Shown: positions 3,464 through 30,935, counted from the first letter of the stretch. The stretch: DNA of 34,045 nucleotides from Patescibacteria group bacterium (GCA_038064275.1 JBBTTL010000035.1:13793-47837); one strand, 5' to 3'. Numbers and translations: made by a program. Notes: generated by a model not told the origin, from the sequence alone.

Positions 3464-3502
3464 AATTAATCACTTGGAAGCGAAGCTTCCAAGTGATTAA
3501 TT
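3464..3502. terminator. Bidirectional hairpin terminator between convergent smc and rnr
   Basis: Near-perfect palindrome AATTAATCACTTGGAAGC-GA-AGCTTCCAAGTGATTAATT between two convergent stop codons. Confidence 0.8.
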
Positions 3503-6522: not shown

Positions 6523-6524
6523 GA

Positions 6525-6562
6525 ATCAAAACCCCTCCCTGCTAGCAGGGAGGGGTTTTGAT
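6525..6562. terminator. 38-nt perfect palindrome (terminator-like hairpin) inside the KH-trmD spacer
   Basis: ATCAAAACCCCTCCCTGC-TA-GCAGGGAGGGGTTTTGAT read directly. Only a 4-T run follows, so termination efficiency is uncertain. Confidence 0.65.
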
Positions 6563-6574
6563 TAAAACTCAACT

Positions 6575-7733: not shown

Positions 7734-7886
7734 ACAGGGTAACGATAATCTGATTGAGTTTTGGCTGAAATTAGCGTTTAAATACTTAAGTGTCTCGAGG
7801 GACTGGTAAAAATTAATATTTTTTAGGTTAATTCCTTAAAACAAAGGCGCGACTCTCGTTGTGTTTTGTTTTAATTTTTTGCATGA

Positions 7887-8012
7887 ATCCCGTTAGAGGC
7901 CGCGGTCACGGTTTAAGACGGAGCTTAAGGCAATATTAAACACGTTCATATTATTATTCACGACAATAATTACGCAGAGCGCGGACTGACAGCGACCTGC
8001 TTCTAACGGGAT
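7887..8012. repeat. TCCCRTTAGAA / TTCTAACGGGA inverted-repeat pair, copy 1 (arms 7887-7899 and 8000-8012)
   Basis: ATCCCGTTAGAGG and CTTCTAACGGGAT give 13 potential pairs with one G-U on the plus-strand RNA. The right arm includes the A and T of the rpoB ATG. Confidence 0.7.
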
Positions 8013-14200: not shown

Positions 14201-14835
14201 GCAAAGAAAAAATAATTAAAATATTGGAAGACGCGGGGGAGGGCAAGAAGGTCGGGAAAGAAGTGGAATATATAGCCCTCTTCCGCCGTCAGCCGCTTGT
14301 TAAAATCGGAGACAGGGTCGCCCGCGGGGACCTCTTGACCGACGGCTCGGCTGAAATCGGCGAAATATTCAAATACGCGGGGAAAGAAGCAGCGGAGGAA
14401 TACATCATTAAAGAAGTGAACCGCGTTTATGAATTAAACGGCGCTTCAATTTCCAGAAAGCACATTGAAGTCATAGTCCGACAGATGTTTTCGCGCAAGA
14501 AAATCAGGCAGGCCGGAGATACGAGGTTTGTTAACGGCGAAGTGGTAGAGAATGTGGAATATGTCCTAGAGAATGAGCGGGTCAAAGAAAATGGCGGCGA
14601 GAAGGCGGTTGGAGAAACACTAATTTACGGCATTTCCGAAGTTTCGCTTTCCACCAAAAGCTGGCTTTCGGCGGCGTCATTCCAAAATACAACCCGCGTT
14701 CTTATTGCAAACGCCGTAAAGGGCGGAGTGGATTCAATTCGCGGGCTTAAAGAGAACGTCATTATCGGGCACTTGATTCCGGCCGGAACCGGGGTGCGCC
14801 ATAAAAATAAAGAGGAGAACGAGGAAGAGGAGTAA
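11221..14835 (+). CDS. rpoC: DNA-directed RNA polymerase subunit beta'
   Basis: 1204 aa. Zn-finger CYCGKY...CEKCGVEV, catalytic NADFDGDQM, and trigger-loop/bridge-helix blocks. Confidence 0.98.
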
Positions 14836-14868
14836 TGGGTAGTATTAAATAGTAAGTATAAAATAAAG
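14836..14868. repeat. AT-rich intergenic module, stop-proximal arm (TGGGTAGTATTAAATAGTAAGTATAAAATAAAG)
   Basis: Starts immediately after the rpoC TAA. Same GGGTAGTATTAA opening as 6488. Confidence 0.7.
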
Positions 14869-14875
14869 ACGCATA

Positions 14876-14925
14876 TTAAGTTACTTCATGAATACTTAAT
14901 ACTTAATACTTTATACTTAATACTA
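14876..14925. repeat. AT-rich intergenic module, start-proximal arm (tandem TACTTAATAC words)
   Basis: GAATACTTAATACTTAATACTTTATACTTAATACTAA, inverted relative to 14836-14868. Ends 8 nt before the dnaG ATG. Confidence 0.7.
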
Positions 14926-14932
14926 ATTTAAG

Positions 14933-16642
14933 ATGTCTTCATCAACAGAAGAAATCAAGGAAAGGTTGCCGATAACGGACGTGGTTTCTTCGTATATAAA
15001 GTTGGAGCGGGCGGGGGCAAACCTTAAGGCCCGCTGCCCGTTCCATAACGAGAAAACCCCTTCTTTTATCGTCTCGCCCTCCCGTAATACTTACCACTGT
15101 TTTGGTTGCAATCGCGGAGGGGATATTTTTTCTTTTGTGGAAGAAATAGAAGGGGTGGACTTCAAACGCGCCTTAGAAATTCTGGCCGACCGGGCCGGGG
15201 TCGTTTTAGAACGCGCTCGCCCAGAATTAAAAAGCGCGGAGCAGAGAGCGTACGGCGTTCTGGAAGAGGCCACTTTATTTTTCCAATCTAATCTCAACAA
15301 GAACAAAGAAGCCCTGGACTATATCAAGAGCCGCGGTCTCTCCGATGAATCAATTGAAAAGTGGAGACTGGGGTATGCCGAGAATGGGTGGCGGGGGCTG
15401 CTCTCGCACCTGAAAGAAAAAAAATATAGCGAAATTGAAACCGAGTACGCAGGACTTATTATTAAAAACGATAAAGGATATTACGACCGTTTTCGGGGGC
15501 GAATTATTTTCCCCGTTGCCAATGCTCAAGGCAAGATTGTCGGTTTCTCCGGACGCCACTTTATAAATAAAGATAGTTTGGAATCGGACACGGCCAAGTA
15601 TATTAATTCTCCCGAAACCGCGCTTTATAATAAATCTCGCGTTCTTTACGGTTTTGATAAGGCCAAACAAACGATTATGCGGGAGGACAGCGCGATTTTA
15701 GTGGAGGGACAAGTGGATTTGGTTATGTCGCATCAGGTCGGGCTTAAAAACACAGTGGCATCATCGGGTACGGCCCTTACGGAAGAGCACTTGAAAATGT
15801 TAAAACGTTTTACGGATAACATCGTGATGGCCTTTGACGGCGATGAGGCGGGACTTGCCGCCTCCGAGCGGGGGTTCAATTTAGCCCTTTCGTTTGGTAT
15901 GGATGTGCGTGTCGCCAAAATCCCGCTTAACACGGACCCCGCGGAACTTGCCGCCAAAGACCCGGATGCTTTAATCAAGGCGGTGAAGACGGCCAAACAC
16001 ATTATTGATTTTTATTTGGACTCGCTCCTTGAGCGCGGATACGATGCCCGCCGGCTGAAAACCGAAGTCGGGAAAAGAGTATTGCCGTACATCGCCATGG
16101 TTCACAATCGTATAGACCAGGCCCACTTTGTAGGCATAGTGGCAAAAGCACTTGGCCTCGGAGAAGAGCCGGTCTGGGAAGAAGTGAAAAAGATTGAAAT
16201 GAAAATTTTTGAGGTCAAGAAAGAAGAGAAATACACCGAAACGCCAGCTACCAAAAAAGAGAAAATTTGTGATAAAATAGCAGGAATTCTCTATTGGCAG
16301 GAGGAAAAAGAAACCAAAGAGAGACAGATTGATATTTCCAAAGGACGAGAACGCTTCAAGGTATTATCAGATGGTGCCCCAATAGACGAGGCAAAAAAGA
16401 AAGACCTTATTTTACAGGCAGAAGTGCATTACCAAGGGAGTGAAAATTTGGCAACAGAACTGGAAAGATTGTTTTTAAATCTTGAGCAGGAATTGCTCGA
16501 GGGAGAGCTAAAAAAGGTCATGGCAGACCTTAGATTGGCCGAGGGGGTCAAAGACGAAGAGAAAGCTAGGACGGCGCTTGAAAAATTTCACCAGATTTCA
16601 AAAAAAATAAACGAGATTAAGCAGAAATTTAAATACGCGTAA
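14933..16642 (+). CDS. dnaG: DNA primase
   Basis: 569 aa. CHC2 zinc finger [11 protein letters not shown]...[10 protein letters not shown] and a TOPRIM region ([10 protein letters not shown]...AFDGDEAG). Confidence 0.95.
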
Positions 16643-17982: not shown

Positions 17983-17990
17983 AAATATCC

Positions 17991-18018
17991 ATTCTCTAAT
18001 TCGCGCGAATTAGAGAAT
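17991..18018. repeat. 28-nt perfect palindrome ATTCTCTAATTCGC-GCGAATTAGAGAAT (CTAATT palindrome family)
   Basis: Read directly. Ends 16 nt upstream of a TATAAT box (18035-18040), so it occupies the -35 position of a putative bcp promoter. Confidence 0.75.
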
Positions 18019-18060
18019 AGTTGAAGAGATGGGTTATAATTAAAATGTTAAAAACTTTTC

Positions 18061-18554: not shown

Positions 18555-19907
18555 ATGACAAAGACAGAAACACAAAATACCAACAAAGGCCCAAGCGAGG
18601 AGCTTGTTCGGCATATTTCCGCCGTTAAAAATGAGACAGAGTGGATGTTGGAAAAACGCCTCGCTTCTTACGAGCTTTGGAAGAAGACATCTATGCCAAG
18701 CTGGGGGCCTGATTTATCGGGGCTTGATTTGGAACATATAGAGTATTTCGTTGACCCCAATTCACCTGAAACCGACAAATGGGAAGAGGTTCCCAAAGAA
18801 ATCGCCGAGATGTTCGCGAAACTCGGTATTCCCAAAGCAGAACGGGAATATCTAGGTGGAGTGGGGGCGCAATATGATTCCGGCGTGGTTTATCATCACC
18901 TCAAAAAATCTTTGGCCGACAAGGGGGTAATTTTTGAAAATATGGACGTGGCTCTGCAAAAATATCCCGACCTAGTGAAGAAATATTTTATGACCGATTG
19001 TATTCCGATTACCGACCATAAATTCGTAATGCTTCATGGCGCGGTTTGGAGCGGGGGGACATTTATTTATGTTCCTAAGGGGGTTCGCGTGGACATGCCT
19101 CTTCAGGCGTATTTTAGAATGAACCGCGAGCGTAGCGCCCAGTTTGAGCATACGCTCATTATTGCTGATGAAGGGTCGTACATAGAATATATTGAGGGAT
19201 GCAGCGCTCCACGCTACCAGAGCGCGTCGCTTCACGCCGGATGCGTGGAACTTTTTGTCCACAAAGACGCGCACATAAAATATTCAAGCATAGAGAATTG
19301 GTCGCGAAATGTTTACAATTTAAATACCAAGAAAGCGTTGGTGTATGAAAAGGGGACTATAGAGTGGTTTAACGGCAATATGGGCTCGTGCGTGACCATG
19401 CTCTATCCGTCGTCGGTTCTTTTGGGAGAAGGCGCCCGCTCGGAATCTCTGGGCATCGTCCTGGCGGGCGAAGGCCAAGTCCAAGACACCGGCTCAAAAG
19501 TTCTCCATCTTGCCCCCAACACCACATCCAACATTCGCTCAAAATCAATTTCAAAAGACGGCGGGATTTCCAACTACCGCGGATTCGTTCAAGTCGGCAA
19601 ACGCGCGGAAAATACTCGTTCTACGGTCACCTGCGACGCGCTGATTTTAGACGACAAATCCCAGTCCAATACCTATCCAACAATGAAGAATGAGAATGAT
19701 AATGTACAAATTGCTCACGAGGCTCGGGTTGGTAAAATCGGGGACCAAGAAATTTTTTACCTTAAATCGCGCGGCTACACCGAGAGCGAAGCCACCCGCC
19801 TTATCGTTTCCGGCTTTATAGAGCCGATGATTAAAGCAATGCCACTTGAATATGCTTTGGAACTCAATAAATTAATAGAATTGGAAATGGAGGGGAGTGT
19901 AGGTTAG
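18555..19907 (+). CDS. sufB: Fe-S cluster assembly scaffold protein SufB
   Basis: 450 aa. SufB blocks (GGVGAQYDSGVVYHH, GGTFIYVPKGV, AHEARVGKIGDQEIFYLKSRGYTESEA). 8 nt after bcp. Confidence 0.95.
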   Translation: MTKTETQNTNKGPSEELVRHISAVKNETEWMLEKRLASYELWKKTSMPSWGPDLSGLDLEHIEYFVDPNSPETDKWEEVPKEIAEMFAKLGIPKAEREYLGGVGAQYDSGVVYHHLKKSLADKGVIFENMDVALQKYPDLVKKYFMTDCIPITDHKFVMLHGAVWSGGTFIYVPKGVRVDMPLQAYFRMNRERSAQFEHTLIIADEGSYIEYIEGCSAPRYQSASLHAGCVELFVHKDAHIKYSSIENWSRNVYNLNTKKALVYEKGTIEWFNGNMGSCVTMLYPSSVLLGEGARSESLGIVLAGEGQVQDTGSKVLHLAPNTTSNIRSKSISKDGGISNYRGFVQVGKRAENTRSTVTCDALILDDKSQSNTYPTMKNENDNVQIAHEARVGKIGDQEIFYLKSRGYTESEATRLIVSGFIEPMIKAMPLEYALELNKLIELEMEGSVG

Positions 19908-19921
19908 TATTACTAACATAA

Positions 19922-20971
19922 ATGAATACTTCATTATCAAAACCAATAAGCTTTGTCTTAAATGAGGAGATAGTAAGAACACAGCAGGGTTATACAGAAT
20001 CTTTCAAAAGATGTAGGGAGATTCTTTCAGAGATAGAGAATATTACTAAAAAAAGAGTTTTGGCTTATTCATCAAATTTTAAATCATCATACGGCGTTAT
20101 GGATAAGGACGCTACCGTAATTGAAGATTTATTAAGAACAAAAAGTGATAAAAAAGATTTACTGTTGATACTAAGTTCTCCTGGTGGACAAGCTGTGGCT
20201 GCGGAAAAAATACAATTAGTTTGTCAGGAATATTCAAAAGCTAAAAAAGGTAAATTTTTAGCATTAGTTCCAAAATCAGCAAAATCCGCGGCAACAATAA
20301 TTGCACTAGGTTCAGATAAAATATTGTTGTCTAGTACTGCAGAATTAGGTCCGATAGATCCTCAAATAATTATTTCAAATAATTTTGAAACTGGTAGTGA
20401 AACCGAAAAAGATCTGGTAGGAAATAAGGAGACGGTAAAAATAAAAAAAGTTTTTCAAAATAGTATTAATGTAATACCGGCTTTCAGAATAATTAAAGCC
20501 GTTGACGATCTTACTGATAAGTCTAAGAAATGGTGGCATTTTAATAGTGATTCAAACAAAATATTTTTGAGCCAGTATAATTATGACCTATATTTGATGG
20601 CTCAAAATGAATTGAAACTCAGCCGTGACATAATTGATAAAATTATCAAAAGAAAAAACATTAAAGATCCTGGATTGTTTAAAATTTTCTCTGACCCGGA
20701 AGTTACTTTATCTCACAATAGACCAATATCTTTGTCAGATTTAAATGATAGCGAACTTCACAAGTCTGGTTTTATAGAGGGATATTTAGAATATTTTGAA
20801 AATGATGGTGTTATTAAAGAAAATCTAGAAAAATTAGACCAACTTATTTGGGAGTATTATCTAAGAACTAATACTCACTTAGAAGATGAAGGTAATTTTG
20901 TTCAAAAAACAATAGAAACAACTACTCATCGAGTCCAATTAGGACATAATGATAGTAATGTTTTATCATAA
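19922..20971 (+). CDS. SDH-family (SppA/ClpP-fold) serine protease-like protein
   Basis: 349 aa. LLLILSSPGGQAVAAEKI ... PKSAKSAATIIALGSDKILLSSTAELGPIDPQI parallels the HTPGG...AMSGGT...GPxDPQ blocks of Clp-fold SDH/SppA proteases as I remember them. Strongly AT-rich gene. Confidence 0.65.
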   Translation: MNTSLSKPISFVLNEEIVRTQQGYTESFKRCREILSEIENITKKRVLAYSSNFKSSYGVMDKDATVIEDLLRTKSDKKDLLLILSSPGGQAVAAEKIQLVCQEYSKAKKGKFLALVPKSAKSAATIIALGSDKILLSSTAELGPIDPQIIISNNFETGSETEKDLVGNKETVKIKKVFQNSINVIPAFRIIKAVDDLTDKSKKWWHFNSDSNKIFLSQYNYDLYLMAQNELKLSRDIIDKIIKRKNIKDPGLFKIFSDPEVTLSHNRPISLSDLNDSELHKSGFIEGYLEYFENDGVIKENLEKLDQLIWEYYLRTNTHLEDEGNFVQKTIETTTHRVQLGHNDSNVLS

Positions 20972-20975
20972 TAAT

Positions 20976-21158
20976 ATGATGGAAAAATCAAACAGTAAAC
21001 CAACAGGTATTGATTTAAAGGATTCTAAAATTGCTCCAGATTTTATGATTAAAGAAAAAATACTTATAGATGAAAAGGAAAATGTTAGAGCAAAACCTAG
21101 TGAAGATATTAAAAATGCAACCACTTCTTCTCTCGTGTTGAAAACTCCCTCGTTTTAG
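20976..21158 (+). CDS. Hypothetical small hydrophilic protein (60 aa)
   Basis: MMEKSNSKPTGIDLKDSK... Start taken at the ATG just after the upstream stop. Same AT-rich composition. No family recognised. Confidence 0.35.
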   Translation: MMEKSNSKPTGIDLKDSKIAPDFMIKEKILIDEKENVRAKPSEDIKNATTSSLVLKTPSF

Positions 21159-21185
21159 TGTGCTGTTTAGAGAATAAGATTAAAA

Positions 21186-21413
21186 ATGCAAAAAATTAAA
21201 CTCGGAAAATACCAACACTACAAAGGAGATTTTTACCAAGTTTTAAATGTCGCAAGACACAGCGAGACAGGGGGGGATTATGTTGTCTACCAAGCTCTCT
21301 ACGACGACCCCGAATTAGGTCCCAAACCTCTTTTCGTCCGCCCCCTTTCAATGTTCACCGAAACCGTCTCTTGGCAAAACTCCACCGTCCCCCGATTTAA
21401 ATTTATAGAATAA
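21186..21413 (+). CDS. DUF1653 domain protein
   Basis: 75 aa. YQHYKGDFYQVLNVARHSETGGDYVVYQALY...FVRPLSMFTETV matches my memory of the DUF1653 pattern. Confidence 0.75.
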   Translation: MQKIKLGKYQHYKGDFYQVLNVARHSETGGDYVVYQALYDDPELGPKPLFVRPLSMFTETVSWQNSTVPRFKFIE

Positions 21414-21455
21414 ACTCCATAACCCTCCCAACCCTAACTCTGGTAACTCTAAGTT

Positions 21456-21489
21456 CTTATCCCCTAATTGTAGCGAATAGGGGGATAAG
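21456..21489. repeat. Palindromic repeat copy 1: CTTATCCCCT-AATTGTAGCGAAT-AGGGGGATAAG
   Basis: Read directly. The conserved centre CTAATTGTAGCGAATAGGGG is shared with 21985 and 22308. Confidence 0.8.
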
Positions 21490-21540
21490 GAAAATATTAT
21501 AGTAGACGGCACCCTGAATTTTTTAATCTAACTCTAACTC

Positions 21541-21936
21541 ATGTATAATTCCTTTATGGAAGGAGGATGTCATTGCAGGGCTATTAGATTTAAGACAACA
21601 AAGAAACCATTTTGGGTTGGCGCCTGTTATTGCGTGGATTGTCAAAAAATAAGCGGCTCGCCTTATGTGGTTTTTGCGGGGTACGAGGCTGGTTCTGTCG
21701 AAATTTTACAAGGGTTTCCGAAGAGTTATTCTTCCTCAGAAAAGGCAGCACGCTCTTTTTGTGGAATATGCAGTTCGCCATTTTCATATACACACAAGAA
21801 TTCACCCAATAAACACTTTATTCCAGTGGGGGTTTTTGATAACCCCAGAGAATTTAAACTAAAGGAACATATATGGGTATCACAAAAATTGCCGTGGATT
21901 CTAATTCACGACAATTTGCCACAACGGGAAAATTAA
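21541..21936 (+). CDS. GFA-family (glutathione-dependent formaldehyde-activating / CENP-V-like) zinc protein
   Basis: 131 aa. Cys pattern GGCHCRAIRF ... CYCVDCQKISGSPY ... FCGICSSPF is typical of GFA. An alternative start lies at 21556. Confidence 0.8.
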   Translation: MYNSFMEGGCHCRAIRFKTTKKPFWVGACYCVDCQKISGSPYVVFAGYEAGSVEILQGFPKSYSSSEKAARSFCGICSSPFSYTHKNSPNKHFIPVGVFDNPREFKLKEHIWVSQKLPWILIHDNLPQREN

Positions 21937-21943
21937 ATAAAAA

Positions 21944-21973
21944 ATGCAAAAAATTAAACTCGGGAAATATCAG
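21944..21973 (+). pseudogene. Duplicated 5' end of the DUF1653 gene (about 30 nt fragment)
   Basis: ATGCAAAAAATTAAACTCGGGAAATATCAG matches 21186-21215 with 3 mismatches, then diverges into the palindromic repeat. Confidence 0.6.
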
Positions 21974-21984
21974 CCCTATCTCAA

Positions 21985-22021
21985 TATTCCCTATTCTCTA
22001 ATTGTAGCGAATAGGGGAATA
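21985..22021. repeat. Palindromic repeat copy 2: TATTCCCTATTC-TCTAATTGTAGC-GAATAGGGGAATA
   Basis: Read directly. Followed by TATAAT (22026-22031) 8 nt upstream of the ArsR-like ATG. Confidence 0.8.
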
Positions 22022-22039
22022 GATGTATAATAGATAAAC

Positions 22040-22306
22040 ATGAGAGAAAAAGAACTGGAACGAAGTTTAAAAGCGTTAGCCAATAAAAGAAGATTGGCAA
22101 TATTACGCTTTATTAGAAAAGAAAAGGAAGTGTCGGTTGGGGGCATAGCTGACGAGATTAAACTATCGTTTAATGCAACCTCAAAACACTTGGGGATTCT
22201 AGCTTCAGCCAATATTCTTGAAAAAGAACAAAGGAGTCTTCAGGTGTTTTATAAAATATCTGATGATTTGCCGGAGATTGTCCGTCGAATTATCTCTTTG
22301 CTTTAA
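22040..22306 (+). CDS. ArsR/SmtB-family winged-helix transcriptional regulator (minimal, Cys-free)
   Basis: 88 aa. LKALANKRRLAILRFI...VSVGGIADEIKLSFNATSKHLGILASANILEKEQRSLQVFYKI is a typical ArsR HTH layout. Confidence 0.78.
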   Translation: MREKELERSLKALANKRRLAILRFIRKEKEVSVGGIADEIKLSFNATSKHLGILASANILEKEQRSLQVFYKISDDLPEIVRRIISLL

Positions 22307-22307
22307 T

Positions 22308-22340
22308 CTATTCTCTAATTGTAGCGAATAGGGGGATAAG
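22308..22340. repeat. Palindromic repeat copy 3 (hybrid): CTATTCTCTAATTGTAGCGAATAGGGGGATAAG
   Basis: Left arm is identical to copy 2 and right arm to copy 1. A degenerate partial copy follows at 22348-22372. Confidence 0.8.
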
Positions 22341-22652
22341 AAGTACTCTTGTGGTAAATAGCGGGATAAGGGATAAAAATAAATAACATTAAAAGATAAT
22401 TAAATTGCAGGAGGTTGTATTGTGCTTCTTTTTTTATTCCGGCAAGCGAGGTTGAGGTGCGGCGGAGCCCCGAAAGACCTTGAGTAGTTTATGAGGATGT
22501 ACTCATCCGAAGAAACGCGAAAGGTGTACTGCTTCTGTAAGAAGTGTACTCACTCACACAGCGTCCGAGCGAAGACGGAACAAAGGGTTTAATACCCTTT
22601 ATATTCTGAATTTTTTGTTGAAAAATAAGCGGCTTTAGAGTAAGCTGACCAA

Positions 22653-22769
22653 TCCCATTAGAAATTTATATAGTTAATAACTAATGCTAATATTGATGAG
22701 CGAATCCGCATAACGGTTTCTTTGTTTGTTTTTATGGGTTAAGGTGTTAAATTTCTAACGGGACAAGTA
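22653..22769. repeat. TCCCRTTAGAA / TTCTAACGGGA inverted-repeat pair, copy 2 (arms 22653-22668 and 22748-22763)
   Basis: TCCCATTAGAAATTTA versus TAAATTTCTAACGGGA: 15 of 16 positions complementary. The right end TTCTAACGGGACAAGTA is identical to 28773-28789. Confidence 0.75.
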
Positions 22770-22780
22770 CTAACAAAAAA

Positions 22781-23452
22781 ATGAAGCATATATTATCTGA
22801 ATATAAAAAGACGGGAGCTCTCAAATACGGGCTCAAAATAGAGTCTCCTTTTATAGAGGATTTTTCGTCGGTGGTGGAGGGCGGCGGGGAAGTTGTGTTT
22901 GTTGGCAAAGACACGCACAAAACCATGAAAAATGACTTATCTACACACAGACTTATCTTGGTGACGGTTGAAGAGGGTGGAACATTTGAATATGAAGAGA
23001 GGGCAACGGGGGCTGTTCACGCCAAAAGCGATTTACACATTTTTTTGAAAGGGAAAGGGGCGCGGGCAGAAATTAAAGCAAGGTATGAAATAGGCGTGGA
23101 TTCAAAACTAGATATTTTACACAAGGTTTATCACGAAGCCGATGAAACCATTTCGAAAATAGAAACGAGAGGAGTTCTTTCGGGCGAGGTGTATGTTATA
23201 TACAGGAGCTATATAAATATGAAAAAAGGACTGAAGATGCTCGTCGGAAACGAGGACGCCAAATTTCTTCTTCTTTCAAAGAGGGCTATGATTGACGCTA
23301 TCCCGGCGCTTGACATTGCTTCGCGGGAAGTAACCTCGCAACACTCGCTTTCTATCAGCCGTATTGGCGAGGAAGAGCTTTTTTATCCGCGCCTGCGCGG
23401 ATATTCCGATGAAGCGGGGAAAGAGTTGCTTCTTTCGGGATTTTTGAAATAA
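22781..23452 (+). CDS. sufD: SufD-like Fe-S assembly protein (short, 223 aa)
   Basis: C-terminal block HSLSISRIGEEELFYPRLRGYSDEAGKELLLSGF parallels the SufB block AHEARVGKIGDQEIFYLKSRGYTESEA. Lacks the long N-terminal domain. Confidence 0.8.
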   Translation: MKHILSEYKKTGALKYGLKIESPFIEDFSSVVEGGGEVVFVGKDTHKTMKNDLSTHRLILVTVEEGGTFEYEERATGAVHAKSDLHIFLKGKGARAEIKARYEIGVDSKLDILHKVYHEADETISKIETRGVLSGEVYVIYRSYINMKKGLKMLVGNEDAKFLLLSKRAMIDAIPALDIASREVTSQHSLSISRIGEEELFYPRLRGYSDEAGKELLLSGFLK

Positions 23453-23456
23453 AAAA

Positions 23457-23479
23457 AGCCCGGGAACCCCCCGGCTTTT
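23457..23479. terminator. Bidirectional hairpin terminator after sufD
   Basis: AGCCCGGG-AACCC-CCCGGCT with flanking A-run and T-run. Confidence 0.6.
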
Positions 23480-23502
23480 GACATACTGGGGCGAGTGAAG
23501 CC

Positions 23503-23634
23503 CTACTTTTCCTTCTTGACCATCCTGACTAAGAACCAAATGATCAATAGGGTGATAAATACAACACCGCCCACCGCAAACCCAACCGCGGGGGTTGACA
23601 GATGGCCCCCCCATAAAACAGAGTCAAAAACCAA
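23503..23634 (-). CDS. Candidate 43-aa single-pass membrane peptide (TTG start) or 36 aa if the G7 tract is one base shorter
   Basis: ...HLSTPAVGFAVGGVVFITLLIIWFLVRMVKKEK* is one hydrophobic helix with a basic tail. Sits between a minus-strand promoter and the 23457 hairpin. Below the ORF-track size cut-off. Confidence 0.35.
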   Translation of the reverse strand: MVFDSVLWGGHLSTPAVGFAVGGVVFITLLIIWFLVRMVKKEK

Positions 23635-23707
23635 AAGCTAAAAAACGATATTTCTGCTGGACATTGTGATATCCTCACTCTCGTTTTCGTTAAGGTGAAC
23701 TCTTTGT

Positions 23708-23736
23708 AGATTATCACATTACATATATATTGTCAA
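23708..23736 (-). promoter_or_regulatory. Minus-strand sigma-70 promoter TTGACA-N17-TAATCT (with TG extended -10)
   Basis: The reverse complement of 23731-23736 is TTGACA and of 23708-23713 is TAATCT. Overlaps a plus-strand TTGTCA-N17-TAGATT that would serve sufS. Confidence 0.5.
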
Positions 23737-23764
23737 GTATAGAAAAATAGTGTAGATTAAAGAA

Positions 23765-24994
23765 GTGTTTGATGTAAATAAAATAAAAGAAGATTTTCCG
23801 ATATTTGAGAACTACAAGAAAAAGTGGGGAAGATATTTGTCGTACCTTGATTCAGCGGCTTCCTCTCAAACACCAAGACAGGTAGTTCTAGCAATGGACG
23901 ATTACTATTTCAACTATCGTTCAAATGTTCATCGCTCGCCCTATAAATTAGGCATTGAAGCGACAGAGGCCTACGAGAGCGCCCGCGCCACAGTGGCGAA
24001 ATTTATCGGTGCAAAAAAAGGGGAGATTATTTTTACTTCCGGCGCCACCATGGGTGCCAATATGTTAGTGGCCATGCTTGAGGATTATTTAAAAATCAAA
24101 CAAGGAGCCGAGATTTTAGCGAGTGTTGCCGAGCACCACTCAAACCTCGTGCCGTTCCAGGAGTTGGCTCTGCGCACTAACGCCGCCTTTCGGGTAATCC
24201 CGCTCTCCGGCACTGATATAGATTATGAAAAGGCGGAAAAACTAATCGGCCCAAAAACAAAAATTGTAACTATCTCGCTGGCAAGCAATGTCTTAGGCAC
24301 TATCTACGAAGTGAAGCGCGTTATAAAATTTGCCAAAAAAGTCGGCGCCATTACGATTGTTGACGCAAGCAAAGCGGCGGGGCACATATCTATCAATGTC
24401 CGCGATCTGGGTTGCGATTTTCTTTTCTTTTCCGGACATAAAATGCTTGGGCCCACCGGCATCGGCGTATTGTATGGGCGCGAGGAGCTACTTACGCGTT
24501 TGTATCCGGGATTTTTCGGCGGGGGCATAGTTTCATCGGTGACGGTGGAAAAAACAAGTTATCTTGATATACCGATGCGTTTTGAGCCGGGTACACCCAA
24601 CGTGGCCGGAGCCATCGGCCTGGCGCGGGCCATGGAATATATAGAATCTTTAGACATTGGCGCTGTCACGAAGCATTCGCAAGAACTGGTGCGCTATGCT
24701 ATAGAAAAACTGAGCCGGATACCGGGCCTGAAAATCGTCTCGGAGAAAGACGAAAAGCGAAACATCGGCATTGTCTCATTCACAATAGATGGAATTCATT
24801 CGCATGATGTGGCTGAAATTTTAGACCGCGGAGGGGTTTCTATCCGCGGGGGGCATCATTGCGCCATGCCATTGATGAAGTATTTGGGTGTCTCGGACGT
24901 CTGTCGGACTAGTTTTTACGTTTATAATGACAAAGAAGATATTGATCGGCTAGCGGAGGGGATAGAGAAAGCGAAATCAGTCTTTGGTTTGTAG
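23765..24994 (+). CDS. sufS: Cysteine desulfurase SufS (class V aminotransferase)
   Basis: 409 aa, GTG start. PLP-Lys block FFSGHKMLGPTGIGVLY and active-site region RGGHHCAMPL. Confidence 0.95.
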   Translation: MFDVNKIKEDFPIFENYKKKWGRYLSYLDSAASSQTPRQVVLAMDDYYFNYRSNVHRSPYKLGIEATEAYESARATVAKFIGAKKGEIIFTSGATMGANMLVAMLEDYLKIKQGAEILASVAEHHSNLVPFQELALRTNAAFRVIPLSGTDIDYEKAEKLIGPKTKIVTISLASNVLGTIYEVKRVIKFAKKVGAITIVDASKAAGHISINVRDLGCDFLFFSGHKMLGPTGIGVLYGREELLTRLYPGFFGGGIVSSVTVEKTSYLDIPMRFEPGTPNVAGAIGLARAMEYIESLDIGAVTKHSQELVRYAIEKLSRIPGLKIVSEKDEKRNIGIVSFTIDGIHSHDVAEILDRGGVSIRGGHHCAMPLMKYLGVSDVCRTSFYVYNDKEDIDRLAEGIEKAKSVFGL

Positions 24995-24997
24995 TAT

Positions 24998-25396
24998 ATG
25001 GTTTATAAAAAAATGCACGACGAAGAACTATATAAAGAAAATATTCTAGATCACTACAAGCACCCGCGAGGAAAGCGCGCAATGACTGATTTTACGCTGA
25101 AAGGAGAGGGGGTCAATGCCAGTTGCGGGGATGAGGTCGTGATATACTTGAAACTCGTTGGCGACAGAATTACCGAAACGACATTCACCGGACAAGGTTG
25201 CGCCATAAGCCAGGCGGGCGCCTCAATGCTTACCGAAAGACTGAAAAGCATGACCCTTGCCGGCGCCAAAATGCTTTCCCCGGGCGATATTTATACCATG
25301 TTAGGTATCAAAGTCAGTCCCGGGCGCGTTGACTGCGCTCTTCTTGCTTATGGGGCCCTGAATCAGGCCCTACTTGGCGGTAAAACCGCCAAGTAG
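24998..25396 (+). CDS. sufU: SUF-type Fe-S scaffold/sulfur acceptor SufU (IscU/NifU-like)
   Basis: 132 aa. LYKENILDHYKHPRG...NASCGDEV...GQGCAISQAGASMLTE matches SufU. Confidence 0.9.
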   Translation: MVYKKMHDEELYKENILDHYKHPRGKRAMTDFTLKGEGVNASCGDEVVIYLKLVGDRITETTFTGQGCAISQAGASMLTERLKSMTLAGAKMLSPGDIYTMLGIKVSPGRVDCALLAYGALNQALLGGKTAK

Positions 25397-25420
25397 GGCC
25401 TGAAGGGGATAATTAAAAAA

Positions 25421-26152
25421 ATGGAAAAACACACGCTGGAAATTAAAAATTTAAATGTTGAAACCGACGGAAAGAGGACGGTAGAGGGCGTAAACCTCAC
25501 CATTCGTTCCAGCGAGATTCATATCTTGATGGGGCCGAACGGTTCCGGCAAGAGCTCGCTTTTGAACGGTCTTTTCGGGCACCCCAGTCACAAATTAAGA
25601 GGCGGCATAATTCTTGACGGCGATGATATTGCCGCGCTCTCAACCGACAAAAAAGCGAAAAAAGGACTTTTTCTTTCTATGCAAAACATTCCGGAAATTT
25701 CAGGCGTTGGCATGCTTAATTTTTTACACCGCGCCTATCGTGAACTTACGGGAACCGAAGGGGTATCAATACTTGATTTCAACAAAGAGGTGGGGGAAAG
25801 GGCGGAGCGTTTCGGCATTTCCAGAGAATTTTTGAAACGTCAGGTGAACTCGGGATTTTCAGGCGGTGAAAAAAAACAGGCGGAGATGCTTCAACTTTTA
25901 GCCCTTCGGCCAAAATTCGCGTTTCTGGACGAGATTGATTCGGGGGTTGATGTTGATTCGCTCCACAAAGTTTTCTCCATCATAGAGGCGCTTAAAAAAG
26001 AGGGCGTAGGATTTCTTTTGATTACGCACTACCCGAATATTTTGAAAAAAATCACGCCTGATTTCGTGCACGTAATGAAAGGGGGCAAAATCGTGAAATC
26101 TGGAGGAGAAGAACTGGCGCGGGAGATAGAAGAGAAAGGATTTGAGAACTAG
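25421..26152 (+). CDS. sufC: Fe-S cluster assembly ATPase SufC
   Basis: 243 aa. Walker A GPNGSGKSS, signature FSGGEKKQAEM, Walker B FAFLDEIDSGVD. Confidence 0.95.
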   Translation: MEKHTLEIKNLNVETDGKRTVEGVNLTIRSSEIHILMGPNGSGKSSLLNGLFGHPSHKLRGGIILDGDDIAALSTDKKAKKGLFLSMQNIPEISGVGMLNFLHRAYRELTGTEGVSILDFNKEVGERAERFGISREFLKRQVNSGFSGGEKKQAEMLQLLALRPKFAFLDEIDSGVDVDSLHKVFSIIEALKKEGVGFLLITHYPNILKKITPDFVHVMKGGKIVKSGGEELAREIEEKGFEN

Positions 26153-26196
26153 CCATTATCTTTTAGCAATTAGCGTTTAGGAAAAATACAAAAAAG

Positions 26197-26487
26197 ATGC
26201 AAGCACCAACCAAAGAACAAATTATTGAAGCCCTGAAAACGGTCAAAGACCCGGAAATCGGGATTGATGTCTGGACGCTTGGGCTTATCTACAAAACTGA
26301 TTCCGGTATTGATGGTATTGATATTTTAATGACCCTGACCAGTCCTTTCTGTCCGTTTGCCGACGAGCTAATTCAGTCTGTAGAAAAAGCCCTTGCCCCT
26401 CTTTCAGGCGGGGAAGTCCGCGTTAATATCACATTTGACCCGCCCTGGGAGCCCTCGGCCGAACTCCGGACGATGCTCGGGGTTTAA
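26197..26487 (+). CDS. DUF59 / SufT-like Fe-S assembly accessory protein
   Basis: 96 aa. VKDPEIGIDVWTLGLIY...LTSPFCPF is the MIP18/DUF59 pattern. Confidence 0.85.
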   Translation: MQAPTKEQIIEALKTVKDPEIGIDVWTLGLIYKTDSGIDGIDILMTLTSPFCPFADELIQSVEKALAPLSGGEVRVNITFDPPWEPSAELRTMLGV

Positions 26488-26498
26488 GTCCGCAGGTT

Positions 26499-26532
26499 TT
26501 CATTCTAACATTCTTGAGAATGTTAGAATGAA
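26499..26532. terminator. Bidirectional hairpin between convergent DUF59 gene and dsbA-like gene
   Basis: Perfect palindrome TTCATTCTAACATTCT-TG-AGAATGTTAGAATGAA. Confidence 0.8.
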
Positions 26533-28357: not shown

Positions 28358-28753
28358 TTAGCGAGGCGTCCTTTTGCTCGGAAGAGCCAGATGAAAGAGG
28401 TCTCGGAAGAGCCAGAGAAGGGTAATAAGGGCAACCACGGCCACTATTTGCACCATGGCGCGAGTGTTCAAGAATGCGTAAGAGTAAAACTGGTACACGG
28501 CCGGAATATCGGCAATTGAGGGCATATTTGCAAACACCGCTTTTACGAAAATCAGCTTTGCCTGGATGTATACAAGCCCGAGCAAGACATACGCCTTGAT
28601 GGCAATACGGCCGTACAATTTTTTCATTAAGAAAATTCCGTAAACACGGCGCATGGTTTCTTTTCTGAATAATTGCGTATTTATATCATTCATCCCATTA
28701 GAAGTTAAATTCATATAATCTTGTAGTAGTTTTTTTGTCCGGTTAGAAAACAT
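28358..28753 (-). CDS. Two-TM membrane protein downstream of ECF sigma (possible anti-sigma factor)
   Basis: 131 aa. Two hydrophobic helices. Lies 39 nt after the sigma gene. No HxxxCxxC anti-sigma motif, so the role is inferred from position only. Confidence 0.45.
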   Translation of the reverse strand: MFSNRTKKLLQDYMNLTSNGMNDINTQLFRKETMRRVYGIFLMKKLYGRIAIKAYVLLGLVYIQAKLIFVKAVFANMPSIADIPAVYQFYSYAFLNTRAMVQIVAVVALITLLWLFRDLFHLALPSKRTPR

Positions 28754-28789
28754 ACTCTCGGGCTTAGTGAACTTCTAACGGGACAAGTA
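28693..28789. repeat. TCCCRTTAGAA / TTCTAACGGGA inverted-repeat element, copy 3 (arms 28693-28706, 28735-28748, 28770-28789)
   Basis: The arm AACTTCTAACGGGACAAGTA can pair with either TTGTCCGGTTAGAA (one mismatch) or TCCCATTAGAAGTT. The ATG at 28753 lies between them. Confidence 0.75.
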
Positions 28790-30080: not shown

Positions 30081-30202
30081 AATTCAGTATTTTGCCATAA
30101 AACGGTATTTTTGTCTAAAGACCCGCGCATAGTAGCCCTGGTTTTTTCTTACCTCGTTCCAATAATTATATCAGGAAAATTAATACGCAGATGTTTAGTG
30201 TA

Positions 30203-30240
30203 ATTTGTTTTAAGGAAGCGGTCGCTTCCTTAAAACAAAT
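30203..30240 (-). terminator. Hairpin terminator abutting the nrdG stop codon
   Basis: Perfect palindrome ATTTGTTTTAAGGAAGCG-GT-CGCTTCCTTAAAACAAAT. Confidence 0.75.
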
Positions 30241-30935
30241 TAGCGAGAATCAATGGCAAGTTGGGGGAAGCTGGCGCGCAGTTGCCCGACAAGCGCGCCG
30301 GTATCAATTTTTTTAGTTTTATCCAAATTGCGGTCAAGATTATTTATATAACTTATCTGTTGAATGAAATATTTTTCACCGGGCCTGAAATATCCGGCAA
30401 TTTCCATAAAATCAGGCGCGGTGTGCACGCCGGGAAGCACGGTAGTTCTCCATTCGTGGGCAACGCCCGAGTTTCTGATTAAATCAAACGTTTCTCTCAC
30501 GCGCGAAAGTATGGGCTCCTTTTCTTTTGCCACATTGGCGATACTTTGGTACTTATCCCAGGTGTGTTTTATATCCATGGCAAAATAATCAACAAGTTTT
30601 TTATCAATCAATCCCCTGACCATTTCCGGAGTAATGCCGTTGGTGTCCAGCTTTACCAAAAAGCCCATATTTTTTATTTTCTCTATGAATTCCGGAAGGT
30701 CTTTATGGAGAGTCGGTTCTCCGCCGGTGATACAGACCCCCTCTATAAATCCTCGGCGTTTATTGAGGTGCTTCCACAATTCCTTTTCGTCAATGCCGCC
30801 TTTGTCTTTATATACAACCAGTTCCGGATTATGGCAGTAGGGACAGCGAAAAAGGCACCCTTTAGTAAAGACTATCGAGGCGATGTGTCCCGGAAAATCA
30901 ATAAGCGAAAGTTTTTGAAATCCGCCGATAATCAT
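30240..30935 (-). CDS. nrdG: Anaerobic ribonucleotide reductase activating protein (radical SAM)
   Basis: 231 aa. CLFRCPYCHN CX3CX2C cluster and GVCITGGEP. Start overlaps the nrdD stop by 4 nt. Confidence 0.93.
   Translation of the reverse strand: MIIGGFQKLSLIDFPGHIASIVFTKGCLFRCPYCHNPELVVYKDKGGIDEKELWKHLNKRRGFIEGVCITGGEPTLHKDLPEFIEKIKNMGFLVKLDTNGITPEMVRGLIDKKLVDYFAMDIKHTWDKYQSIANVAKEKEPILSRVRETFDLIRNSGVAHEWRTTVLPGVHTAPDFMEIAGYFRPGEKYFIQQISYINNLDRNLDKTKKIDTGALVGQLRASFPQLAIDSR

Follow-up and report, generated by a model that had tools for sequence, protein, structure and literature searches.

What does it mean that 2.9 kb of DNA separate sufB from sufD, two genes of Fe-S assembly? According to the initial annotation, this DNA is a single composite insertion that splits a suf operon and is bounded by an 8-bp direct repeat. 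The gap is found in a groundwater Patescibacteria genome. We studied it in the window, i.e. the whole stretch of 34,045 nucleotides that was analysed, and compared it with the corresponding loci of related genomes. Our preferred reading, to which we give a probability of roughly 0.6, is that the gap is a long-standing slot with turnover of small accessory genes.

Gene content and composition of the gap

The landmarks of the initial annotation are all as described: the sufB stop TAG at 19905-19907, TACTAACA at 19911-19918 and at 22768-22775, and the sufD ATG at 22781. The features of the locus are given below (window coordinates, strand where assigned, description).

17989-18020: near-perfect palindrome of 32 nt (CCATTCTCTAATTCGC followed by GCGAATTAGAGAATAG), upstream of bcp
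18555-19907, +: sufB, left anchor of the variable slot
19911-19918, +: left TACTAACA, 3 nt before the protease ATG, an instance of the pre-start word TACTA(A/C)
19922-21158, +: two-gene low-GC module, ClpP-like SDH-type serine protease and 69-aa partner
19922-20971, +: ClpP-like SDH-type protease (PF01972)
20949-21158, +: 69-aa partner, motif DLKDxKIxPxF, conserved beside SDH homologues elsewhere
21170-21413, +: DUF1653 gene (21186-21413) with its native 5' region (repeat box LB1, 21170-21220)
21454-21492, +: hairpin repeat HP1, CTTATCCCCTAATT-GTAGCG-AATAGGGGGATAAG
21541/21556-21936, +: GFA-family (Zn/Cys-rich) gene, likely start ATG 21556
21937-22024, +: LB2-HP2 unit, the first 11 DUF1653 codons fused to a hairpin
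22040-22306, +: ArsR/SmtB-type winged-helix regulator of 88 aa (ArsR/HTH_20), no cysteines
22308-22371, +: hairpin repeat HP3 (22308-22341), followed by a degenerate copy (22349-22371)
22372-22617: non-coding stretch, no homologue in relatives and no Rfam match
22618-22646, +: sufD-proximal promoter-like block, TTGAAA-17 nt-TAAGCT
22653-22763: MITE-like element of 111 nt, terminal inverted repeats TCCCATTAGAAATTTA / TAAATTTCTAACGGGA
22768-22775, +: right TACTAACA, part of the native sufD leader
22781-26487, +: sufD-sufS-sufU-sufC-sufT, right anchor, separate predicted transcription unit

Six ORFs had been proposed for the gap; five are supported and the sixth is not. The sufD gene of the window encodes a short form of 223 aa. 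Part of the gap is compositionally foreign, as had been estimated by eye: 19908-21160 has 29.8% GC and a GC3 of 0.20-0.21, against 44-51% GC and a GC3 of 0.46-0.56 in bcp and the suf genes. Across the whole gap the GC content is heterogeneous, from 30% to 41%. The protease module (30% GC, GC3 0.20) was not seen in any of the relatives compared. Pairs of protease and partner homologues form low-GC islands in other small genomes, and one protease homologue has 37% GC within a contig of 54.5% GC (L172).

With HTH_5 or HTH_20 above the Pfam threshold as the criterion for an ArsR domain, the 88-aa protein scores 34.1 bits for HTH_20 (cut-off 27) and 26.1 bits for HTH_5 (cut-off 22). It is 81% identical to a protein in the same slot of L155/L166, and homologues at 60-85% identity are widespread in Patescibacteria, including outside suf contexts.

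The final part of the gap had been described as about 470 bp of non-coding DNA. The 474 nt at 22307-22780 indeed lack a supported ORF, but they contain the promoter-like block and the 111-nt element. The stretch 22346-22617 has 41% GC, the segment 22400-22620 has a predicted fold with z = -2.6, and several assemblies end within 22372-22617. Integrase and transposase domains are absent from the gap and the other scanned ORFs of the window, as had been claimed, and from the scanned gap ORFs of the relatives.

The same flanks enclose different genes in related lineages

The order of the flanking genes, rpoBC-dnaG-sigA…sufB on one side and sufD-sufS-sufU-sufC-sufT-dsbA on the other, is kept in 6/6 other lineages with a SufB 81-90% identical to that of the window. 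The order is documented for the window, L155, L159, L160, L163, L153 and L166. All six close lineages have a sufB-sufD gap of 1.5-5.4 kb, with a distinct gene content in each (PIN, HIT, NUDIX, ArsR and others), and the Pfam content of the slots differs between lineages. The gap lengths are 5.4 kb (L155), 2.9 kb (window), 2.6 kb (L159), 2.1 kb (L160), 2.0 kb (L153), 1.6 kb (L163) and 1.5 kb (L116); the other suf junctions mostly measure -26 to +225 nt. In an all-against-all BLASTP of gap ORFs, only four families were common to two lineages each: ArsR (window, L155), HIT (L155, L159), PIN (L159, L163) and a 64-aa ORF (L116, L163).

L094 and the relatives whose SufB is 67-69% identical have sufB next to sufD, which is the outgroup state. 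The synteny comparison proposed in the initial annotation supports its view that the DNA between the two genes is accessory, since distant relatives have them adjacent and close relatives carry other genes there. The claim of a single 2.9-kb insertion fails on the same data. With the window counted, seven lineages have a SufB identity of 81% or more, and every one of them has a gap, so the sufB-sufD split is old. One insertion of 2.9 kb was rejected as a candidate: the parts are of different age and the split is older than the lineage.

The ArsR module is common to the window and L155, a Lloydbacteria relative. Nucleotide identity to L155 is 75.3% for ArsR, 84.5% for LB2-HP2, 78.0% for sufB and 74.7% for sufD, i.e. 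the module (75-85%) is about as diverged as sufB (78%). It would have been inherited vertically since the split from L155, and the low-GC protease module would be a recent acquisition. The gap is a mosaic, and its remaining parts are the DUF1653 gene with a remnant copy of its 5' end, the GFA gene and the MITE-like insertion in the sufD leader.

The 8-bp repeat is probably a pre-start word

The initial annotation explained the gap by a composite mobile segment that transposed into a 14-nt sufB-sufD spacer and duplicated the 8-bp TACTAACA, the enzyme acting in trans or having since been lost. An identical short direct repeat is present at both ends of the 2.9-kb segment, the exact 8-mers stand 3 and 5 nt before the flanking ATGs, and excising the interval would leave a normal spacer. 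The window has three copies against 0.49 expected, the third at 6890 inside a gene. However, the core word TACTA lies at most 20 nt upstream of 6 of 31 gene starts (0.28 expected), an enrichment of about 20-fold. Whether TACTAACA is a common pre-start word has a divided answer: its core is, but the exact 8-mer is never found before a start in relatives (16 matches in 1.52 Mb, 0 before a start), which favours transposition. Within the 25-nt pre-start windows, an 8-mer is common to both members of 12 of 465 gene pairs (2.6%). At about 2-3% per gene pair, an exact 8-mer at the two ends is still somewhat improbable.

The right TACTAACA is homologous to the sufD leader of L155, with which it aligns (TACTGAAT) once the MITE-like element is removed, and the promoter block just to its left is conserved in relatives with other gap content. 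The left copy resembles ATTACTAAAAC-ATG, which follows sufB in L076. Both copies are instances of the pre-start word, perhaps the -10 box of transcripts starting at or near the ATG (predicted leaderless starts). The predicted empty site, TAG-TATTACTAACAAAAAAATG, has no match in 1.79 Mb of relatives' loci, and the slot is occupied in 6/6 close relatives. The segment lacks a transposase and terminal inverted repeats joining its two ends, its composition is heterogeneous, and the gap is older than the lineage of the window. The 8-bp repeat is thus not retained as a target-site duplication, and transposition is disfavoured as very unlikely. The TACTAACA pair was also rejected as an insertion scar: it is a local pre-start signal, and the homology break described below lies inside sufB, left of the repeat.

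A MITE-like element precedes sufD

The 111 nt at 22653-22763, inserted between the promoter block and the sufD leader, are MITE-like. The element is small, its terminal inverted repeats have arms of 16 nt (94% complementary, 79 nt apart), it holds no ORF of at least 30 aa, it has multiple copies (three in the window, and in at least seven other loci), and both occupied and empty sites are seen. The L163 copy separates dnaG from sigA, which are only 4 nt apart in the window. Five copies have clear TGAA/TGGA repeats at their sides; the copy at 22653-22763 has only CAA / ACCAA~ACAAG.

Bacterial MITEs include the Correia elements and the Rickettsia palindromic elements. The 111-nt element resembles them in its terminal inverted repeats, its lack of an ORF, several copies per genome, short repeats beside some copies and a site in a 5' leader. 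It differs in that its terminal inverted repeat TCCCGTTAGAG has no Rfam match and that many copies are placed precisely at a start codon, where they restore the ATG. We know of no parent insertion sequence.

Hairpin repeats and LB boxes

The three palindromic repeats reported for the gap are real (21468, 22002 and 22319, with the common core TTGTAGCGAATAGGGG), and a degenerate fourth copy lies at 22349. The duplicated gene fragment is real too: the LB boxes at 21170-21220 and 21928-21978 are 84% identical and span the first 11 DUF1653 codons. L155/L166 (two copies) and L163 have units in the corresponding slot that are 81-85% identical to LB2-HP2; the LB box alone is found in L096. The LB-HP units were seen in four lineages, never outside the sufB-sufD slot, and always in intergenic positions on the + strand. 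The HIT gene of L155 has one of two identical 83-nt units on either side. Four lineages share a conserved LB box amid differing DNA on both sides, and the box supplies the TAA stop of three unrelated genes. This conservation and stop-codon use are not predicted by simple homologous exchange and may point to a more specific process.

The hairpins are 32-40 nt long, have the core CTAATTGTAGCGAATAGGGG and lack RYYYAAC/GTTRRRY boxes at their ends. Because 4 of 12 pairs have undergone compensatory changes and numerous G.U pairs can form in the + strand only, we infer that the HP repeats behave as sense-strand RNA hairpins at gene ends, a function predicted from sequence.

Alternatively, the LB-HP units, each made of a 13-6-13 palindrome and a 36-nt box, could be recombination sites for a host Xer-like or other recombinase, and single-gene modules would be excised and inserted like integron cassettes or Acinetobacter dif modules. 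This would fit the restriction of the units to the slot, their strand and position, the identical pair around the L155 HIT gene, the three genes ending on TAA inside LB, and some hairpins that resemble hybrids of two arm types around the 6-nt centre; no mobility gene would be needed. Integron cassette arrays also consist of short single-gene units in one orientation with imperfect palindromic repeats between them. However, the slot lacks IntI, its repeats (35-85 nt) lack the R''/R' boxes, and relatives have genes on both strands. Neither the scanned ORFs of the 34-kb window nor the relatives' flank gene tables yielded a tyrosine-recombinase domain indicating IntI/attI. attC sites are imperfect palindromes of 57-141 nt with RYYYAAC … GTTRRRY boxes, i.e. 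longer than the hairpins of the window.

The dif modules, according to parts of the texts of PMC6449649 and PMC13141974, share with the slot small modules without their own recombinase and arm-6 nt-arm sites. The dif modules are bounded by 11-6-11 XerC/XerD sites in alternating orientation; the sites of the slot are 13-6-13, all in direct orientation, and their pairing depends on G.U pairs, which suggests RNA and not a DNA site. The sites have no associated recombinase, and no link to Xer or the replication terminus was found; the cumulative GC skew increases steadily through this part of the sequence. Long palindromes of a similar kind occur in many further intergenic regions of the window, L159, L160 and L153 have variable gaps yet no LB-HP, and the repeat identity in L155 extends 50 nt past the palindrome, as expected of a duplication. 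Site-specific exchange of this kind seems to us quite improbable.

Transcription signals and the ArsR gene

According to the initial annotation, the gap genes inherit transcription from the bcp-suf promoter. In six lineages a conserved promoter-like block precedes sufD. The form TTGAAA-17 nt-TAAGCT is conserved in position and sequence in L155, L160 and L153, and L163 and L116 have TTGCTA-17-TAATCT. GFA, ArsR and sufD each have a -10-like box of their own. GFA and ArsR lie just downstream of a TGTATAAT box, at 21542-21549 for GFA (6 nt before ATG 21556); the TATAAT box of ArsR (22027-22032) ends 7 nt upstream of its start. G+C-rich terminator-like sequences lie directly 3' of sufB in L160 and L116 (that of L160 is a clear hairpin) and immediately ahead of the promoter block in L163 and L116. 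Inherited transcription is not supported for GFA, ArsR and sufD, which have promoter-like signals of their own. The protease, its partner and DUF1653 are the only genes for which read-through from bcp-sufB is plausible. The genes sufD-sufS-sufU-sufC-sufT are predicted to form a separate transcription unit.

Upstream of bcp lies a promoter-like site, TAGAGA-18-TATAAT (18011-18040), with its -35 overlapped by the 32-nt palindrome, a member of the sequence family of the gap hairpins. The slot could be a selected, functional part of a redox/Fe-S stress regulon rather than a deposit of foreign genes: ArsR would bind palindromes at bcp-sufB and at its own promoter, and GFA, DUF1653, HIT and the peroxiredoxin would be co-regulated stress genes. 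The bcp palindrome and the hairpins flanking ArsR share ATTCTCTAATT in a 13-6-13 layout, the palindromes lie at or beside -10 boxes, the ArsR gene is kept in the slot of two lineages, and L153 has a perfect palindrome of this type within its slot. Yet four of the six close relatives lack an ArsR gene in the slot, and ArsR homologues 66-70% identical occur in unrelated neighbourhoods. The arm covariation and the G.U pairs are more readily reconciled with a hairpin than with a fixed operator. The 88-aa sequence contains no Cys, so the protein cannot sense by a cysteine-ligated Fe-S cluster or thiol chemistry. The low-GC protease pair is found in L175 in a defence-gene-like neighbourhood (SMODS, SLATT, SocA). 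We regard such a regulon as unlikely.

A candidate breakpoint inside sufB

One contig, L075, is about 99.85% identical to the window upstream, and homology breaks near 19810, about 100 nt inside sufB. The last ~90 nt of sufB (19817-19907) show third-codon differences, and the DNA after its sufB stop is unrelated to that of the window. This is the only homology break seen against a near-identical contig, and marks the sufB 3' end as a candidate recombination breakpoint. The contig, which differs after sufB codon ~420, has 7x coverage and may be a chimera that arose during assembly at a shared k-mer of sufB; its tail matches none of the relatives' sequences compared. It would be the only direct evidence of recombination in the population. 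A right-hand breakpoint was not seen in these comparisons.

The gap itself might be an artefact in which reads of different organisms were joined into a chimera: numerous short contigs stop at HP1 or within 22397-22571, and the composition jumps at the sufB stop. Misassembly, which the initial annotation wished to see checked, is excluded because five other assemblies are collinear across the gap at 99.8-99.98% identity. They include a 48-kb contig at 205x coverage; three of the five extend into sufD or beyond, and one has an indel error profile typical of long reads. The contig breaks coincide with repeats of at least ~30 nt (HP1, HP3). The probability of an artefact is close to nil.

A probable gene-exchange hotspot at an unusual location

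Flexible genomic islets between core genes are found in E. coli, Listeria and marine picocyanobacteria. Such islets or hotspots also appear in parts of the texts of PMC2617782 and PMC3556495. Like the slot, they have syntenic core flanks, unrelated small gene sets at one position, a partly atypical composition and often no integrase, and their turnover is attributed to homologous recombination in the flanks. The slot differs in lying inside a normally single, tightly packed Fe-S assembly operon, in its size of only 1.5-5.4 kb, in its ultra-small Patescibacteria host and in housing a widely conserved regulator.

A study of groundwater Patescibacteria, the same phylum and habitat type as the window, used IslandViewer on MAGs; parts of its text report hundreds of islands, transfers mostly between Patescibacteria, and the retention of homologous-recombination and competence genes (PMC12455944). 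By term search, its main text does not mention the suf operon, hotspots or integrases.

The sequences themselves show the pattern of a hotspot, the mosaic make-up of the gap, the conserved promoter-like block and the enrichment of the pre-start word. As to mechanism, we infer that DNA would be taken up from relatives and incorporated by homologous recombination. The anchors would be the sufB 3' end, the sufD promoter and leader, and the ~85-nt LB-HP repeats within the slot. No element-encoded recombinase would be involved. Small modules (the ClpP-like protease pair, PIN, HIT, NUDIX, GFA, DUF1653 and ArsR genes) would build up in the old intergenic slot between sufB and sufDSUCT, which would act as a gene-exchange hotspot, and would then be replaced there. 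The slot is probably of an ordinary kind, in an unusual location. The suf cluster of this Lloydbacteria-like Patescibacteria clade would then probably consist of (bcp-)sufB and sufDSUCT rather than of one operon.

Content and assembly of the sufB-sufD gap

A check of the sequence bore out the boundaries of the gap that the initial annotation described between sufB and sufD:

19905-19907, stop codon of sufB
19911-19918, left copy of the 8-mer TACTAACA
22768-22775, right copy of the 8-mer
22781, ATG of sufD

The 8-mer is found three times in the window, against 0.49 expected. Pfam identifies AhpC/TSA (bcp), SufB, a short SufD, SufS and SufU in the flanks, and a ClpP-like SDH-type protease, DUF1653, GFA and an ArsR-type HTH protein among the ORFs of the gap. 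The short SufD has 223 aa, and its match to the SUFBD core domain is confined to the C-terminal two-thirds of that domain. The three palindromes reported for the gap are present, together with a fourth, degenerate copy. The reported shift in composition is also found: GC is 29.8% and GC3 0.20-0.21 in 19908-21160, compared with 44-51% and 0.46-0.56 in bcp and the suf genes.

Misassembly can be excluded, since five further assemblies cross the gap with an identical arrangement (99.8-99.98% identity) and three of the five reach sufD or extend past it. Among these assemblies are a 48-kb contig at 205x and a contig with a long-read-like indel profile. The source population is Hainich groundwater Patescibacteria, and the closest named relative is a Candidatus Lloydbacteria MAG.

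Close to sufD, the segment 22346-22617 (272 nt) has a fold z of -2.6 and no homologues, and the breakpoints of several assemblies fall there. A tBLASTx search of 22340-22780 against all loci gave matches only within the window's own population. In assembly ERZ2470813, NODE_159 (L004 12531-21050, L178 7267-12228) consists of N from the equivalent of window position 22452 to the locus end, with no genes listed, and NODE_4114 begins at window position 22397, an overlap of 55 nt. This pattern suggests an alternative continuation past 22452. Rfam found nothing in the entire window at gathering thresholds, and only a chance 7.7-bit tmRNA fragment in 21380-22800 at E <= 5. The tRNA scan gave no tRNA gene as a possible integration target.

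The gap in related lineages

Loci of relatives were fetched via SufB, and the neighbourhoods of the closest SufB proteins were inspected. SufB worked better than SufD, for which a search of the GTDB species representatives gave a best match of 41% identity, too distant for synteny. Gene order is conserved in all lineages with a SufB identity of 81-90%: rpoBC-dnaG-sigA…sufB on one side and sufD-sufS-sufU-sufC-sufT-dsbA on the other. In each of these lineages a gap separates sufB from sufD, with different content each time (see the table), so the idea of a single insertion is not supported.

Table. The sufB-sufD gap in relatives. In the columns: the fetched locus, the SufB identity, the gap length, the gap content.
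L155/L166, 90%, 5.4 kb, 303-aa and 151-aa ORFs, HIT-like, ArsR, five minus-strand ORFs
L159, 88%, 2.6 kb, PIN, HIT-like, two others
L160, 83-86%, 2.1 kb, three minus-strand ORFs, one matching PaaX_M
L153, 84%, 2.0 kb, NUDIX and others
L116, 85%, 1.5 kb
L163, 81%, 1.6 kb, PIN and two others

All-against-all BLASTP of the gap ORFs gave only four shared families, each common to two lineages, and no recombinase domain was detected among the gap ORFs scanned. Further away, sufB and sufD are adjacent in relatives with a SufB identity of 67-69% and in L094 (72%), while sufB is directly followed by sufS in several lineages with 70-77%. Since the distant relatives are adjacent and all close relatives gapped, the split is derived, yet older than the window's lineage. 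Comparable gaps of 0.6-4.4 kb are present in other branches (L088, L089, L091, L093). In loci L079-L081, L083, L085, L086, L090, L092, L097, L100 and L101 (SufB 67-77%) sufS directly follows sufB and there is no sufD.

The remaining suf junctions mostly measure -26 to +225 nt and a few 450-900 nt; the sigA-sufB interval also varies among relatives. Further junctions (sufS|sufU, sufU|sufC) are sometimes interrupted, as in L160 13302-14750, L153 12344-12849, L088 11691-12631 and L097 9601-10138; in L160 a methyltransferase gene lies between sufU and sufC. Because of these interruptions the suf cluster is to be regarded as generally porous, with sufB|sufD as its consistent break.

The right edge and the direct repeat

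Two features lie directly upstream of sufD in the window:

22618-22646, promoter-like block TTGAAA-17 nt-TAAGCT, also found in L155, L160 and L153
22653-22763, inverted-repeat element of 111 nt

In L163 and L116 the counterpart of the block is TTGCTA-17-TAATCT, directly preceded by a terminator-like hairpin with a T-run. The distance from the block to the sufD start is 10-24 nt in relatives and 135 nt in the window, because the inverted-repeat element lies in between. When the element is removed the sequence reads GTAAGCTGACCAACAAGTACTAACAAAAAAATG, which aligns with GTAAGCTGACCAATACTGAATAAAGAAGTG of L155, and therefore the right copy of TACTAACA belongs to the native sufD leader. The block is kept in relatives with other gap content, so the DNA to the left of the right copy does not come from a window-specific insertion. 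When the 300-500 nt before sufD were aligned globally, solely the last ~50 nt were informative. The suf genes of the window should not be annotated as a single operon.

The initial annotation took the 8-mer for a target-site duplication, which is contradicted by the native origin of the right copy and by the enrichment of its core word before starts. The left copy resembles the sequence after sufB in L076 (…GATTACTAAAAC-ATG). TACTA occurs at most 20 nt upstream of the start in 6 of the 31 window genes, against 0.28 expected: rnc (154), smc (1133), trmD (6612), dnaG (14933), the protease (19922) and sufD (22781). The distance from the pre-start word, TACTA(A/C) or TATACT, to the ATG is 5-8 nt, with no Shine-Dalgarno visible there; at GFA and ArsR a TGTATAAT/TATAAT box likewise ends 6-7 nt ahead of the ATG. 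The position of TACTA(A/C) suggests that it may be the -10 box of leaderless or very short-leader transcripts. An 8-mer in common within the 25-nt pre-start windows was found in 12 of 465 gene pairs (2.6%). Frequency before ATGs, which the initial annotation itself named as a ground for rejecting its reading, is thus found for the core word, but not for the exact 8-mer, which has 16 matches in 1.52 Mb of relatives and none before a start. The predicted empty site TAGTATTACTAACAAAAAAATG was absent from 1.79 Mb of fetched relatives, and no terminal inverted repeats of the sufB-sufD interval were found.

Over 8.2 kb, contig L075 matches the window at ~99.85% identity. Codon third-position differences set in at 19817 and run through the last ~90 nt of sufB, after which the contig continues in unrelated low-GC DNA; L075 has a coverage of only 7x and is possibly chimeric. 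If it is genuine, the exchanged segment would start not at TACTAACA but within sufB, which is what homologous recombination predicts. A single 250-nt bin, 14800-15050, in the rpoC|dnaG spacer, holds 55 of the 91 differences that separate L075 from the window, and could be another small hypervariable site flanked by core genes.

A MITE-like element family

The element before sufD belongs to a MITE-like family of 46-126 nt with terminal inverted repeats TCCCGTTAGAG…CTCTAACGGGA, present in several Patescibacteria lineages:

Window, 7888-8011, 22653-22763 and 28693-28783
L163, 6172-6270
L085, 10711-10836
L101, 10839-10958
L067, 6794-6912
L071, 9753-9874
L066, 5183-5261
L155, 14607-14675

Many copies fill the exact space from the stop codon of one gene to the start codon of the following one, bordered by 4-bp repeats that co-vary (TGAA or TGGA). 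The last A of the element and the repeat rebuild the downstream ATG of rpoB (window), sigA (L163) and sufT (L085, L101). The dnaG|sigA site is empty in the window and occupied before sigA in L163. The family has no Rfam match, and the literature search found no published description.

Hairpins and the LB box

The hairpins of the gap (HP1-HP3) form one 13-6-13 family with the bcp-promoter palindrome (17989-18020), the palindrome at 905-938 and two in the L153 slot. Compensatory changes are found at 4 of 12 pairs, and G.U pairs are numerous. G.U pairs function only in + strand RNA. RNase III and RNase R are encoded in the window. Judged from their sequence, the hairpins are probably RNA structures at gene ends, i.e. 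terminators or stabilisers.

Unusually long perfect palindromes with arms of 14-21 nt are located in many intergenic regions of the window, at 905-938, 3464-3502, 6524-6563, 17991-18018, 25363-25403, 26499-26532 and 30201-30242. The one at the sufU|sufC junction varies among strains, with mismatches of L002 at 25382-25416. We rejected the palindromes as dif sites, there being several per 34 kb and a cumulative GC skew that climbs steadily without a switch.

The duplicated gene fragment of the initial annotation is indeed the 5' end of DUF1653, and it is more than a local duplication. The duplicated box of ~36 nt, LB (AAACTCGGGAAATAYCAGC), corresponds to codons 1-11 of DUF1653. It recurs in L155, L163 and L096, each time on the + strand and in the sufB-sufD slot, with flanking DNA that differs on both sides between lineages. 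Its TTAAAC is the source of the stop codon for three unrelated upstream genes. In L155 the HIT gene is flanked by two identical 83-nt units of LB box and hairpin (LB-HP). An IS200/IS605-type PATE was rejected for LB-HP, LB itself having no hairpin. The sequence ATGCAAAAAATTAAAAC (7860-7887, minus strand) is nearly identical to the start of the LB box and directly adjoins, on the left, the MITE-like element that precedes rpoB; this likeness may be a coincidence.

The LB-HP unit (~85 nt) could be the recombination site of an integrase-less cassette exchange, carried out by a host recombinase in ultra-small Patescibacteria. LB-HP units lie solely in the sufB-sufD slot, in one orientation and between unrelated genes in four lineages. 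We consider such an exchange improbable. An integron does not apply, as the gap has neither IntI nor attC boxes and the gaps of relatives have genes on both strands. Nor are these dif modules, from which they differ in arm length and site orientation, and the pairing is of the RNA type.

Origin of the gap genes

The module LB2-HP2-ArsR-HP3 (21937-22342) is 76% identical to L155 across 413 nt. By part, the nucleotide identity is 75.3% for the ArsR CDS and 84.5% for LB2-HP2, next to 78.0% for sufB and 74.7% for sufD, which fits vertical inheritance of the module since the split of the window's lineage and L155. The 88-aa ArsR protein has homologues across Patescibacteria at 60-85% identity and is a conserved small regulator residing in the slot, not a foreign gene. 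Homologues at 66-70% identity have unrelated gene neighbourhoods; their non-suf contexts weaken the idea of a dedicated suf regulator, and a suf role is not demonstrable.

The compositional outlier of the gap is the protease with its 69-aa partner, an ORF without a Pfam match that overlaps the protease 3' end and contains the motif DLKDxKIxPxF. The partner is kept beside protease homologues elsewhere, and homologues at 54-58% identity with the same small partner are found in other small genomes. In L172 the pair forms a 37% GC island within a 54.5% GC contig, and in L175 it adjoins SMODS, SLATT and SocA genes. The partner is co-directional with the protease in the window (20949-21158) and convergent in L172 (8697-8906) and L175 (3414-3629), overlapping the protease 3' end in all three. 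The module is absent from the slot of every relative examined, and for this reason it looks like the latest arrival.

A phage or plasmid origin of the gap was rejected, with no DNA match among 50,697 phage and 72,556 plasmid records. The protease had a single weak match to the phage records (37.7% identity, 20% of the query covered), and PHROG matches were limited to prohead-protease-like folds. The PADLOC defence-system search gave nothing for the protease, the 69-aa partner, DUF1653 and GFA, and only generic wHTH models, e.g. Csa3 and CasR, for the ArsR protein.

Mechanism and significance

The best reading of the gap is a recombination-driven hotspot between two transcription units. Directly observed are the pattern across lineages, the differing ages of the parts of the mosaic, the conservation of the promoter-like block, and the pre-start word; we infer the recombination route, the promoter use and the hairpin function. 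DNA arriving from relatives would recombine via the conserved flanks, and the internal LB-HP repeats possibly also serve as recombination sites for it. New genes would be added by illegitimate joins and genes lost by deletion. Patescibacteria reportedly retain recombination and competence genes, and their islands are reported to be numerous (PMC12455944). The gap adds one more case to a known class, the integration hotspots or flexible islets that lie between core genes; what is unusual is its location inside the suf cluster of an ultra-small genome.

As a lesson of method, a short direct repeat beside a start codon has to be compared with the background of the genome in question before it is called a target-site duplication. 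Because the core genes on either side are easy to recognise, the slot is a handy strain-level marker of gene flow for the Hainich aquifer time series. In streamlined, host-dependent Patescibacteria too, a core Fe-S assembly cluster can stay split over the long term, and the split can take in accessory genes, of which some may have a role in defence, with no integrase involved.
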